Source: Eledone cirrhosa
Lineage: Eukaryota
NCBI GenBank assembly: GCA_964016885.1
Contig: OZ024740.1
Location: 139,314,001-139,378,000 of the forward strand
Direction: 5' to 3'
DNA: 64,000 nt
Shown: positions 13,094 to 59,080 of the stretch, in pieces
Layout of the letters: every line of letters starts with the position of its first letter
How positions within the stretch are numbered: the stretch's first letter is position 1
Notes under the pieces: generated by a model
Seen by the model: the letters and a program-made list of their open reading frames with translations, nothing else
The model's database searches: none
Told to the model about the DNA's origin: nothing
Program-made: the position numbers and the translations under genes

Positions 13094-13149
13094 ACTGCTA
13101 TATATATTTCGATGATAGCCATTGAATGGCTATGACCACATCAGGCAGT
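13094..13149 (-). ncRNA. Type I hammerhead ribozyme, A9U variant core
   Basis: Minus strand: ACUGC-CUGAUGU-GGUCAUAGCCAU UCA AUGGCUAUCAUC-GAAA-UAUAUA-UA-GCAGU. Confidence 0.7.
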
Positions 13150-14189
13150 TAGTCAGTTCTTAGATATGCCAGCTCTGTCTTTATAGTGTTGATGGTATCA
13201 GAGCCTTGTGACATATTGAAATATAGGGAGAAAAAGACGATTATTAGGAAGAAAAATATATTTTTTTCCTTTTTATTGTTTTCTCTTTTTTTCTGGGTTC
13301 GAAAATGTTTAAAACAAAATATTTTACTTTGTGTGAAGTGTTAAGGTATTAGTTAATTTATTTATTAATTAACAATGGCATTTATTTATTTATTTATATA
13401 TTTAATAATTGTCTATTACCGGTTTCGGCATTTTATGCATTATCAAAGGGGGGAATTTGTGTTTGTGTAAAATGTTGGTGATGTTGAACATGTTAAGGAA
13501 ATGGTGAAGAAAGAATAATGTTATTTACAAACAAGGTTTTTGAAGTGAAAAGAAAAAAGAAAAAAAAAGGGGGGCAATGTGGAACATGATAAGGTAATAA
13601 GAAAGAAAAAATAATATTATTTACAGGCATAGTTCTTGAAGATAAGCAGATCAAAATGTGTTATTATGGCAAGAGTGCTTAGTTGATCCATGATGGAGGC
13701 AAATGGTAGTCTGGGGTCTGTTATGATTTCCCTTTTTAGAGAGTTAATATGCAGGGGGAGGTAATTCAGGGTGGTCAGGTAGGGGAGAGAGAAATGAGAG
13801 GGGGTAATTCATTTATATAAGAAAAAGGATTAGGTAGGGTGTGAGGGAGGTAACTCTTTAGAGAACATAGGAATTTGGTTTTGGTTCATTGTTCGTTCCA
13901 GTTTTAGTTTAGTCCGAAGTTTAGTCCATTATATATATATATATATACTGATCAGCCAGATTTGCATATTAGCAGACTGGCCAGTCAGTTTTCTGTATAC
14001 GAGCGATCAATCTGAGTTTATCGAATATTCGAAAAACTCAGATTACATTTATTGTATTCAGCCATGTAGAGCGAAAATCTTTTTCTTTTTATTTAACCTA
14101 GTAAAGCCGGCCATTGATCGCTCGTATACAGCAAACTATATGTATATATATATATATATATATATATATATATATATATATATATATAT

Positions 14190-15026
14190 ATATATATAAA
14201 GTTGTATCCCTGTCTGTTTGTTTGTTTGTTTGTTCACGAACTACTCCTATGGTTTTGGAGATTGATCCCCATAACCACATATATTCTGAAACTGCATTGT
14301 CCATGGTACTTGGATAAGTATATTTCATTTTAATCAAAGGGTTCCCAGGGGGCAGAAACCCCCGCTGAAAATGTTTTCCCTTCGATTTATATGAAATTTA
14401 AACCATAGGTAAATGATAAGATATGATGCCTTTTCACAAAATTTCAGCAAATTCCAATAATATTAAGACACCCTAATGGGGGTTAAACCCCCTTTAGTGA
14501 AAGTTTTGGCCAATAAATGGAACAAGATTTCACGAACTCCCCCTATGGTTTTGTTCACGAACTACTCCTATGGTTTTGGAGATTGACCCCCATAACCATA
14601 TATATTCTGAAACTACATTGCCAGAGTACTTGGTTAAGTATATTTCATTTTAATCCAAGGGTTCCCGGGGGCACAAACCCCCGCTGAAAATTCTTTCCTT
14701 TCAATTTATATGAAATTTAAACCATAGGTAAATGACAAGATATGATGCCTATTCACAAAAGTTTTGAATTGATATTTAAAAAAAAAATATTTACAAGAAA
14801 CAAAATAAGAATAAGATTTAATAATGTAATTTTGATTTGATATATTACAAAAAAAATGTTTTCCAATTTTTCATGCATTATATTTTACATTGAGTAATAT
14901 TGAATTGCAGAGTTTTTCACCTTAAATTATATCACTGATTTAAAATCAATCACCATTTTCTTAGAAAAAAAAAAAAAAAAAATGTTAAATGTGCGAAACG
15001 CGGCATGGCGCGAGTAATTCGGCTAG
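14190..15026 (+). mobile_element. Non-autonomous Helitron with internal ~320-bp duplication
   Basis: Starts in a TA run followed by (GTTT)n; 14230-14440 is repeated at 14550-14760; 3' CGCGGCATGGCGCG hairpin then CTAG|T. Confidence 0.7.
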
Positions 15027-56143: not shown

Positions 56144-58585
56144 TTAATTAGGTTTATAATATTTAAATGTTTTTTTTAGTTTATGATTACACGATATAAT
56201 TAATTCCTGTCGTTTATTTAATAGGATATCCCTAGATTTCATTATTTCAAATAGTTCTTGGGAACATAATCTACATTCATTTCTATTATTTTGATAAGGG
56301 GTGGCTCTTTTGAGCACACTCCAGGTCAAATCATATTCTATATTCTTATTTTTATAACTATTGATTTTTTCTGCTAGAGATGTTGTATTAGCCAGTGCGG
56401 CATTTTTAAAACTATGCTTGTGGGTATTAAACCTTGTCTTAAAATTGTTAGAGGTAGCTCCTATATATGAGCAAATAGAATCTTTAGTTTTAACATTACA
56501 TTTATAGACTATGTTGTTAACAAGACAATTCCCTTTTAATGGGCAGTTTGCTTTGTTTCTACAGTTACAACCTTTCGTTAATTCTGTATTTGAGGAGATA
56601 TTATGGTTAATTTGATGTACTAGTGGTATACTTATGGTTTTCTTACATTTATATGCATTATAGGCACTTATATTTTGTTTTATGTTATTTGTTGTAGAGT
56701 ATGAGAATTTAACTGTAGACCTATTTAAGATTTGATGGTATTTGTGGTTTGGCGGGAAGTTTTTCTCTAGGATATAAAAAATTTTTTTAGCAATATTATC
56801 CTTAATTTGTAAATTAAATGGAGCATTATACCAAGTAACCCGTCTATTACGGTTTCTATGTTGTTTATTATTTTTATTATTTTTATAGGTTGTATCGTGA
56901 TTTTTACTAGGAGGATTAATGTTAATGATCTCACCACAACCATTTTTAGTTATATTTGTAGATTTAGGTGTTTTATCCTTTTTATTAGGAGTTTTATTAT
57001 TAATATTTATTAGAGTTGTATGATAAGTAGTTTTTTGAGAGTTACTATACTTTATATTAGAAGATTTGGTATTTTGGGGTATAGTGTGGGTGGCATTTAG
57101 GTGTGTACTTTTCATTTGGTGTTTGTTGGTAATATTAGGTTGTATGCTTTCAGTATTTTTAGTAGAAGGTATATATTCTAATCTATTTTTGTGGCCACTT
57201 CTATCTAGAGCTTCGTTATAGAAGGTCGCATTTTTATCAAATACATCTTGGTTAGAAGAAAGGTTAGAAATTCTAAGTGATATATTATATGCAAGGTTTT
57301 TAAGGATAGATTTAGGGTGATTAGATTGTGAGTGTATGTAATGTAAGTTTTGGTTTGGTTTATGGTAAGGTTGGTAGATACCCGTAGCTAAATCTAAAGT
57401 TATATCTAGGAAATTTACTACTTTACTTGTTTTTTCAAAAGTAATATTAAGATTATAATAGTCTTTAAGGAAAGTTCTAATATGTTTTTTGTTTTTTTCA
57501 ATTTCTGAAAGGCTAAGGTTGTTAGAAAGAAGAAGACAGTCATCACGATATAAACCACCTTTGAGGTGGGGAAAGGAGGCATTTATGTTGAAAAGGAGAA
57601 AGAGGCCCACAAGATCAGTAATTTGGGCGGAATCGCTTGAACCCATAGTAATATCAAAAAGATTACTATATGTGTTTCTGGTCCAGTATTCATTCTGAAA
57701 TTCAATAAGTGTTAGTCTAGCATGTGTAATAATATTAATGTCATCCAAAGTTAAGTTAGATCTATTTTTAGCAAATATCAATGCTTTGTTCAGGAGTATA
57801 GGTGATATAGAAGAATAGTAATTATCTATATCAAATTGTAGAAATGAAGCAGAAGATTTACATCTAATATTTTTAAACCAGTTAATTACCTGGGAGGTGT
57901 TTTCCCAGAGTGGTAAAATAACGTGTTTTCTTATTTGTGGGATGACTCTATCCAAAATTTTTTTGCTAATTATTCCAATATCTGATTTGGAGGGACATAT
58001 AAGTCTAATAGAAGGATTTGAGTTAAAGTTTGATTTATGATCCTTCAGGTTGAAGTGTGGTCTTTTCAATGCCAAAGGTTCAGTTCTATCTTCAATGTTT
58101 AGTTTTTTTACTATGTTGTGTGTTTTGTTGTTGATGTTGGTGAGTGACGCATTATTAGATTTTTTATAATTTTTTCTGAGTTCTTTATATATGAACTCAT
58201 TATAATGTTTAATATCCATATGATACAAGTTACCAGTTTTGTCCGAGTGGACATGGATTTTTTTAGACTTTTTTAGGTCCAATAGGGTAGAATCAAGGTC
58301 CTTTTGAAAGACGGATTTATACTTTTTAAATTTGAGGTGTTTAATTAAATTAAAAAGGTCTTTCTCGAAGTCTTCAAGTAAAAAGTTGTGTGGTGGATTC
58401 TTGTAAGTATTGAAATCATACATATATTTCCGATCTGCTTGTTTAGATTTTCTATCGAAATGGTAGGCTCTCCATCTAACCCTTCTGATAAAATTATTAG
58501 TTTTTTGAATCATAAGGAGTAAGAAGTCATCCTTAGAAGGTATTGGTATGTTTTTTAAAGAGGTTCCTAAATATTGTTTTTCCAT
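56144..58585 (-). CDS. Penelope-like element reverse transcriptase + C-terminal GIY-YIG endonuclease (~813 aa from the first ATG)
   Basis: SDKTG, RT motifs LQFDIDNYYSSI, ITMGSSDS, GLYRDD, VNFLDITL; linker CNCRNKANCPLKGNC; IVYKC...YIGAT..FKTRFNTH...CRLC; no stops. Confidence 0.93.
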   Translation of the reverse strand: MEKQYLGTSLKNIPIPSKDDFLLLMIQKTNNFIRRVRWRAYHFDRKSKQADRKYMYDFNTYKNPPHNFLLEDFEKDLFNLIKHLKFKKYKSVFQKDLDSTLLDLKKSKKIHVHSDKTGNLYHMDIKHYNEFIYKELRKNYKKSNNASLTNINNKTHNIVKKLNIEDRTEPLALKRPHFNLKDHKSNFNSNPSIRLICPSKSDIGIISKKILDRVIPQIRKHVILPLWENTSQVINWFKNIRCKSSASFLQFDIDNYYSSISPILLNKALIFAKNRSNLTLDDINIITHARLTLIEFQNEYWTRNTYSNLFDITMGSSDSAQITDLVGLFLLFNINASFPHLKGGLYRDDCLLLSNNLSLSEIEKNKKHIRTFLKDYYNLNITFEKTSKVVNFLDITLDLATGIYQPYHKPNQNLHYIHSQSNHPKSILKNLAYNISLRISNLSSNQDVFDKNATFYNEALDRSGHKNRLEYIPSTKNTESIQPNITNKHQMKSTHLNATHTIPQNTKSSNIKYSNSQKTTYHTTLININNKTPNKKDKTPKSTNITKNGCGEIININPPSKNHDTTYKNNKNNKQHRNRNRRVTWYNAPFNLQIKDNIAKKIFYILEKNFPPNHKYHQILNRSTVKFSYSTTNNIKQNISAYNAYKCKKTISIPLVHQINHNISSNTELTKGCNCRNKANCPLKGNCLVNNIVYKCNVKTKDSICSYIGATSNNFKTRFNTHKHSFKNAALANTTSLAEKINSYKNKNIEYDLTWSVLKRATPYQNNRNECRLCSQELFEIMKSRDILLNKRQELIISCNHKLKKTFKYYKPN

Positions 58586-58926
58586 TGTGATATGGATGAT
58601 GGACAATTGAAAGAGCTCAACTAAATGTATATGGGTTTATAAAATCATACATATATATGTATATACATAAATATAAAATTAATACACACATACAGTACAA
58701 AAATACGAATATTTCCGTGAAAATAGGAGCAAAATTATGTAGATAAATCTACCAAGAGTTTACGGTAGTGTCCAATCCGTATGAAGAACTCAATGTAATC
58801 CGGATATCATGGAAAGAAGAGATGCAATGAAAAATCACTTTCGGTGAAAGATAAACGGTATACAGAGTCAAGATAAAATATTAAACAAATAATGAATAAA
58901 CAATTCCTTATATTAAACAAAAAAAG

Positions 58927-59080
58927 TTCATTATTTAACGATCGTTTCTAGGATATATATGTGTTAGAGTTGGCATGCATATTCAACAGATCTATGTACA
59001 AAATTATACAAAATTATACAAACTATCAAGATTAAATATACATACCAACACATATATACGCCGTCTTCAGAAATAATGAA
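58927..59080 (-). ncRNA. Type I hammerhead ribozyme, second copy, ~350 nt upstream of the copy-1 ATG
   Basis: Identical to 52170-52323; predicted cleavage between 58937 and 58936. Confidence 0.82.

Follow-up and report, generated by a model that had tools for sequence, protein, structure and literature searches.

We analysed a 64,000-nt stretch of the Eledone cirrhosa genome (the window; assembly GCA_964016885.1, 3.0 Gb, contig OZ024740.1, positions 139,314,001 to 139,378,000 of the forward strand), in which hammerhead ribozymes (HHRs) and Penelope-like elements (PLEs) lie next to (TA)n tracts. Six hammerhead-bearing families, labelled A (13.1/33.1 kb), B (21.5/33.4/33.7 kb), C (43.3-45.5 kb), D (48.0 kb), E (50.6 kb) and F (52.2/59.0 kb), are real and end in (TA)n, their self-cleavage being predicted. 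Coordinates are collected in Table 1.

Table 1. Features of the window in order of position. L-numbers, here and in the text, are sampled genome loci. ORF, open reading frame; RT, reverse transcriptase; pLTR, pseudo-long terminal repeat.
Position	Strand	Feature	Remarks
13049..13215	-	A, 5′-truncated 3′ end of a coding Hydra-type PLE other than F	HHR 13094-13149; L202, L204
21434..21830	.	B, two-armed fold-back fragment of a coding Hydra-type PLE	both outer ends in (TA)n
33073..33131	+	A-like decayed HHR fragment	82% to the 13.1 kb copy
33200..33744	.	B, two-armed fragment	HHRs 33442-33404 (-) and ~33.66-33.70 kb (+); ORF upstream in L205-L211
40510..40882	+	older C-group sibling, ~330 bp	both termini shared with C; no intact HHR by scan
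43290..45485	+	C, array of a 310-bp non-coding unit with HHR, 7.1 copies in tandem	between long TA tracts
47765..48290	-	D, 3′ end, truncated 5′, of a coding Hydra-type PLE	HHR 47989-48098; L212, L215
49933..50756	+	E, full 564-bp non-coding unit (50193-50756) with a partial 3′ copy and an inverted 5′ piece (49933-50049)	ends in (TA)n
50198..50222	+	E start hairpin 1	few nt past fixed 3′ end/junction
50333..50350	+	E hairpin 2	fits strict clade descriptor
50505..50604	+	E hammerhead	U3-A8 core; stem I of 9 bp, stem III long
51982..58738	-	full F unit, 6757 bp	~4.1 kb microsatellite-rich 3′ region; 3′ end 51982 adjoins (TA)n
52170..52323	-	F hammerhead, downstream copy	long stem II, palindromic CGAUCG
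56144..58585	-	F ORF, 813 aa from first ATG	RT and C-terminal GIY-YIG-type endonuclease, from motifs, model and copies
58615..58730	-	F unit start with split clade hairpin	halves ~105 nt apart
58739..64000	-	upstream tandem F copy forming pLTR	self-BLAST 99-100%; runs off window
58927..59080	-	F hammerhead, upstream copy	HHR layout

Hammerheads and their TA niche

Type I layouts were found at all six family positions, as the first-pass annotation, made from the sequence alone, had proposed. It had also described a tiny, usually palindromic stem III, which fits five families: UAUAUA in A (13144-13099, minus strand; A9 is altered in this copy and the 33.1 kb HHR is decayed), CAAUUG in B and D (D at 48093, minus strand), CGCG in the seven C copies at 43.4-45.3 kb (that at 43424 with one additional A) and CGAUCG in F (52313 and 59070, minus strand), where stem II spans 115 nt and the fold z-score is -5.96. 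E departs from the description with 8-9 bp in stem III (z -4.47); it had passed for a broken HHR until its U3-A8 register was found. Both this core variant and short palindromic stems III are known from PLE HHRs (PMC4209133). Among the best 30 genome copies of each family, the window's own copy included, CUGAUGA is intact in 16 for A and 17 for D, CCGAAGA (U4C) stands with CAAUUG in 23 for B, and UUGAYAA is present in 26 for E. An E pattern left free at positions 3, 7 and 8 gave 1163 matches (control 0), with U3-A8 in 96 of the first 100 and N7 variable.

The genome-wide HHR scan which the annotation had suggested was run on a sample of 79 evenly spaced 10-kb stretches (790 kb). At a descriptor score of at least 8 it returned 58 motifs, 11 of them in one array, against 1, 2 and 0 in three shuffles. 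HHR counts are floors, because the final descriptor misses the window motifs of A, D and F. The 58 motifs extrapolate to about 2 x 10^5 HHRs per genome, above the 126,247 counted in axolotl with a different descriptor (PMC7229834). Stem III is palindromic in 37 of the 47 sampled motifs in which it is short (59 rows). Rfam gave no HHR among the 150 of 497 window matches listed, which were hairpin-like microsatellite matches.

The proposed TA niche held up. With arrays collapsed, (TA)6 lies within 250 nt downstream of 36/45 HHR motifs, as compared with 19.5% of random positions, and the bias is directional (37/59 downstream vs 14/59 upstream, within 200 nt); a control repeat resembling a short interspersed nuclear element (SINE) met TA in 9/84 cases vs a background of 9.2%. 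In every family the 3′ end is fixed, the 5′ ends being ragged. TA was found at the 3′ flank in 29/30 copies of A, 24/30 of B, 28/30 of D and 22/30 of E, the eight remaining E ends reading through into the next E unit, and at all 34 outer 3′ ends of C. Tandem or fold-back layouts, which had been noted for most families, occur in B, C, E and F; within the window, A and D stand alone.

Family F and the coding parents of A, B and D

The F protein carries RWR and DKT motifs, a CxCx5C linker (CNCRNKANC), YIG, CxxC (CRLC) and CxH (CNH), and its endonuclease part combines YIG with conserved R, H, E and N columns in the C-terminal part of the protein alignment. Because these RT and endonuclease motifs match the description of the Hydra clade, F is assigned by motif to that clade, as a young PLE: its ORF has 54 scored genome copies at 98-100% amino-acid identity, 51 of them stop-free, some in four-unit tandems of ~6.67 kb per unit. 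It is not a Naiad, its endonuclease being C-terminal and an HHR being present. The predicted structure (predicted local distance difference test 80) has TERT structures as its top nine Foldseek matches in the PDB. Pfam has no family for the protein, and GIY-YIG was matched weakly in 1/18 aligned members (E 0.012); a PDB sequence search gave one weak retron RT match, and the best named relative is from Argonauta hians (42% identity). Of 20 sampled stretches 5 contained the end of F, and every end other than a tandem junction met TA. Most of the F 3′ region (52620-56140) is ~3.5 kb of TA/CA-rich microsatellite copied along with F, so that F spreads potential targets for its own kind.

A single coding PLE amid non-coding elements was the original picture. 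Of its five short families, C and E are indeed non-coding, and A, B and D extend upstream into GIY-YIG/RT ORFs; these three are therefore truncated ends of three further, separate coding PLE families, older than F. The annotation had itself named this outcome, short elements proving to be truncated ends of autonomous PLEs, as one that would refute it; it applies to A, B and D and not to C and E. Sense endonuclease matches lie within 1.5 kb upstream in 3/30 A, 3/30 B and 13/30 D copies, and in all loci chosen for a long 5′ extension (3/3, 7/7 and 9/9). A pLTR-ORF-pLTR layout was seen in L202 and L215, and an ORF start directly after the family end in L202, L100, L113 and L215 (after the B end in L100 and L113). 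The endonuclease regions of A, B, D and F are mutually 33-40% identical, and the linker and CxxC/CxH motifs are found, partly decayed, in B and D translations. With such ORFs, A, B and D do not qualify as non-LTR (long terminal repeat) retrozymes, which are non-coding units. Pieces of Hydra-type ORFs were present in 12/79 of the spaced 10-kb stretches.

Non-coding units C and E and a start hairpin

From their sequence C and E are non-LTR retrozymes, that is, complete non-coding units with PLE insertion anatomy (longest stop-free frame 59 codons in C, 57 in E) and candidates for cleavage and circle formation. The sample comprised 20 arrays of C and one chance array, 30 junction loci of the C group and 30 copies of E. 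C has 278 genome matches in 40/49 candidates, and its arrays are scattered over many contigs with PLE-type ends. Two arms point apart in 16/20 arrays. The 34 outer 3′ ends fall at the unit junction (19) or ~30 nt beyond it (15), the extra piece being the tail typical of PLEs; these two positions match the two internal RT starts and the two-strand extension reported in vitro for a PLE (PMC11167929).

Arrays of C are clonal and differ between loci. Units deviate from their own array consensus at 42 of 58,509 sites; between arrays there are 4.0 differences per 297 sites, and 2/190 array pairs are identical. The same haplotype occupies both inverted arms in 12/13 arrays, and 0/78 pairs of arrays match. 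Variation is located at N7 (three states), in loop II, at position 10.1 and in stem I, where pairing is preserved, the HHR core being otherwise fixed; 17/45 site pairs fail the four-gamete test. A variant fixed in all units of both arms needs a one-unit bottleneck, such as a circle supplies, and clonality in both arms together with difference between loci is what a circular template would be expected to leave. A monomer circle, copied over and over, is probably the template of C; later amplification from a short insert is possible. Clonality across both inverted arms was not found in print.

C also has siblings. At ~320 bp (L221-L250, e.g. L228, L247, L250, L240-L242) they keep both termini and differ in their HHRs, mostly with a U3-A8-type core and a 10-nt palindromic stem III. 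The sibling junction pattern gave 1731 genome matches against 0, and a 163-bp tandem derivative of the group is without HHR.

For E, 3100 first-look genome candidates were obtained, with relatives of 523-538 bp. Two loci considered as its coding parent were dropped: the E-like sequence that follows an endonuclease at L260 sits nested in the TA tail of that element, and L153 turned out to be the inverted arm of E itself.

Most coding Hydra PLEs examined carry a bulged hairpin, GCUC-Y...R-UH-GAGC, immediately beyond the fixed DNA 3′ end and 4-125 nt ahead of the ATG. At tandem junctions GCUCC...GUUGAGC follows the fixed end by a few bases in B, D and three other coding starts; in A the hairpin comes ~100 nt past it. 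E carries the hairpin twice. In a further family 10/17 ends stop just before the hairpin and 6/17 ~45 nt past it. The strict pattern had 776 genome matches against 7; among 20 picked for variety, 6 preceded a Hydra ORF start, 3 belonged to a non-coding tandem family, 1 was E-related and 10 were unassigned. An isolated strict match at 38384-38409 of the window, ~60 nt before a TA run, is likely the tail of a further family.

The hairpin was also sought in 77 metagenome loci of relatives, 57 of which, having the N-terminus and some flank, were used. Within 150-200 nt of the ATG the strict motif occurred in 33/57 and the relaxed form in 44/57 (twice or more in 31 of these 44), against 6/57 in a control within ORFs. 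Base pairs were counted by an anchored script in 69 distinct motifs. The two inner pairs are Watson-Crick in 66/69 and 45/69, vs shuffle means of 41.6 and 21.6: at the fifth pair 50 have C-G and 16 U-A, and the sixth takes all four Watson-Crick forms, with a 2-nt bulge on the 3′ side. For the outer pair, G-C was counted 65 times and U-A 6 times, and the six U-A cases come from three loci that are possibly related. By eye, the hairpin is visible in the published consensus ends of Hydra-1_Ajap, Hydra-2_Ajap and Hydra-2_Amil, and its strict form is absent from those of Hydra-1_Obim and Hydra-1_Crog. Ten loci gave no Rfam family on it. We found no description of it in a literature search covering mainly open papers; the term 'hairpin' is absent from the supplement of PMC8557442, and no such structure appears in the main-text sections covered. 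We consider it likely, from the position of the ends, that the hairpin marks where the enzyme begins copying, which would make it a candidate link between non-coding repeats and their helpers.

Other repeats occupy the same surroundings. The SINE-like repeat (the label is our reading) is abundant, with 127 matches in 790 kb, for example at 4061-4242, 15625-15774 and 16162-16352 of the window. The repeat at 50.9-51.3 kb (50898-51263) is a fold-back flanked on both sides by TA, with family members at 23033-23216 and 5858-5996; TA adjoins 1/4 of its sampled ends, and it was not counted as an HHR, since it ends in CUGAUGA and a short stem with no GAAA after them. A further short family (38727-38886, 51802-51934) has inverted copies ending in TA runs, in which no HHR was seen. 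The ~100-bp palindrome at 48311-48408, between TA runs and with a UUGAGC half-motif, recurs beside many sampled loci and may be the folded-back end of another family. A broken non-LTR retrotransposon RT (Pfam RVT_1; 21904-23023) is inserted with a TA run on one side and the 23.0 kb repeat on the other. Elements are frequently nested in one another's TA tails: at L345 (G000:C1:150804800-150805800), a coding element's hairpin and ORF start follow directly behind a B end and its TA tail.

Proposed copying in trans, alternatives and known systems

Taken together, we put a probability of roughly three in four on the window holding an intact Hydra-clade PLE, the truncated ends of three coding families and two non-coding HHR repeats which were likely copied in trans into (TA)n. 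In the mechanism we propose, an RT-endonuclease would nick both strands of the palindromic (TA)n, and complementary DNA would be primed from each nick, giving two arms with their 3′ ends outward. The RT would start within the RNA, where an A/U-rich stretch directly precedes the bulged hairpin on its 5′ side; the hairpin likely positions the enzyme, and two hairpins or two start sites could leave an optional tail. The enzyme would copy back past the HHR site, the RNA being uncut or circular, and two truncated arms would be joined. As the start is situated 3′ of the hammerhead cut, at a distance of 50-230 nt, longer copies require uncut tandem RNA or a ligated circle; a circle model is already in print (PMC4209133, PMC7229834). 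Tentatively, and with rather less assurance, we extend this to the whole clade: the hairpin may be a recognition and start signal of Hydra-clade PLE RTs, the closest kin of telomerase RT, such that HHR circles which keep it without coding (E and its relatives) may be copied by any of many coexisting families, each circle being written into both (TA)n strands as a clonal two-armed array.

Several observations weigh against this account. The sampled ORFs of A, B and D are broken, and none of 43 ORF-start and 169 ORF-end flanks (overlaps included) revealed a coding element with the ends of C or E. C, the youngest non-coding family, fails the hairpin descriptor and has only a partial GCU...GAGC; in F the halves of the hairpin are unpaired in the lowest-energy fold. 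The hairpin by itself is not unusually stable (z -0.49), its reverse-strand control reached 15/57 in the metagenome loci, and its covariation counts sequences, not events, the C-G/U-A switch partly dividing first from second hairpins. The window HHRs of D, C and B fold no better than shuffles, that of A doing so, and HHR cleavage is dispensable in vitro for Poseidon, the one PLE tested (PMC11167929). Naiad PLEs, too, target (TA)n in octopuses (PMC8557442 supplement).

The helper-parasite system envisaged by the first-pass annotation, with the PLE at 56-58.6 kb mobilising all the short families as non-coding parasites, remains plausible for C and E as regards the principle, not for A, B and D, which have ORFs of their own. 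F as the one helper we consider very improbable. It is young, with its many near-identical and mostly intact ORFs, TA targets are common to all families and C is also very young; against this, the genome holds many further coding families, the termini of F and of C/E share only chance-level matches of 14-16 nt, and no evidence singles F out. It is also improbable, if somewhat less so, that C and E are ends of coding PLEs whose long copies escaped sampling, their tandems arising by later local DNA amplification in the manner of satellites. The sample is small, local amplification of a PLE terminus has been proposed by Li et al. (bioRxiv 10.64898/2026.07.22.740005), and unequal crossover could homogenise arrays. 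This reading has to face the end-to-start junction in 18/30 E copies, C units that follow one another head to tail in either inverted arm and share a single haplotype, the dispersal of C arrays over contigs with PLE-type ends, and the 30 C-group junctions, none of which precedes a PLE ORF start.

Mobilisation of C, perhaps also of E, by another TA-targeting enzyme such as a Naiad PLE is unlikely, yet a more serious contender: C is without the Hydra hairpin, and Naiads form tails and inversions besides inserting in (TA)n, and occur in octopuses (PMC8557442). Canonical HHRs are lacking in Naiads, however (PMC8557442), the two hairpins of E are of Hydra type, and a partial GCU...GAGCAC motif is kept at C-group starts. 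That the hairpin acts in the 5′ untranslated region (UTR) as a promoter, in translation or at the DNA level, and is no RT start signal, is the alternative we doubt least. Its place shortly before the ATG in coding elements would suit such a role, as would the internal promoters that PLEs have near the pLTR (PMC8557442); its retention in non-coding units, its covarying pairs and the mapping of insertion ends just 5′ of it argue for a start signal instead. Copying in trans from a start at the hairpin stays our preferred reading; bench work would be best spent on the hairpin and on the clonal arrays with two arms.

If the clade-wide reading is right, the hairpin would be the motif that identifies a helper, which animal retrozymes are said to lack, no conserved motif of theirs pointing to one according to a 2020 review (PMC7761336), and would provide a minimal RNA for a TA-targeted integration assay. 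In vitro systems have been called for to explain the tandem and inverted insertions of PLEs and their microsatellite bias (PMC8557442), and this genome supplies an intact young enzyme in 54 copies, short RNAs that are candidate passengers, start sites placed on the map and a hairpin whose pairs covary. As elements these are additions to kinds already known; their use lies in a link that can be tested.

The first-pass annotation knew of no description of its system for this lineage; the TA-targeting, HHR-bearing clade and the helper-parasite idea both prove to be in print. The Hydra clade (Craig et al. 2021, PMC8557442) combines (TA)n insertion with HHRs, and an octopus member, Hydra-1_Obim of Octopus bimaculoides, is listed (PMC8557442 text and supplement); the words 'hammerhead' and 'Hydra' are absent from the main text of an octopus repeat annotation (PMC13282606). 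The clade agrees with F in its C-terminal endonuclease, RWK-type and DKT motifs, CxCx5C, CxxC and CxH, and with the elements here in (TA)n insertion, a type I HHR near the 3′ end, and tandem and inverted copies (PMC8557442). F differs in having 6.8 kb with a microsatellite-rich 3′ region, the described members being mostly <3 kb; many Hydra-type families coexist here, and the start hairpin and non-coding partners are undescribed in the parts of PMC8557442 covered. Non-autonomous Chlamys elements, e.g. MRC1, are likewise non-coding PLE derivatives with pLTRs and head-to-tail copies (PMC8557442).

For retrozymes, circular intermediates and PLE helpers have been proposed (Cervera and de la Pena 2020, PMC7229834; Li, Clavereau and Pollet 2026, bioRxiv 10.64898/2026.07.22.740005). 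The metazoan non-LTR retrozymes of these papers resemble C and E in being tandem repeats without coding capacity, whose units measure a few hundred bp and have one type I HHR each, and in co-occurring with PLEs. C and E are unlike published retrozymes in their head-to-head arms, two defined 3′ ends and strict TA targets, their circles being predicted only, and E, in contrast to PMC7761336, has a structured motif in common with coding elements. Poseidon of Anolis (Frangieh et al. 2024, PMC11167929), which belongs to a different clade, likewise has two internal RT starts bounding a tail and AT-rich targets. Its start lies in an AC-rich stem loop inside the ORF, whereas the ends here lie 5′ of a bulged 5′ UTR hairpin; and both strands were cut and extended in vitro with Poseidon (PMC11167929), a course of events which is read here from the anatomy of the sequence alone.

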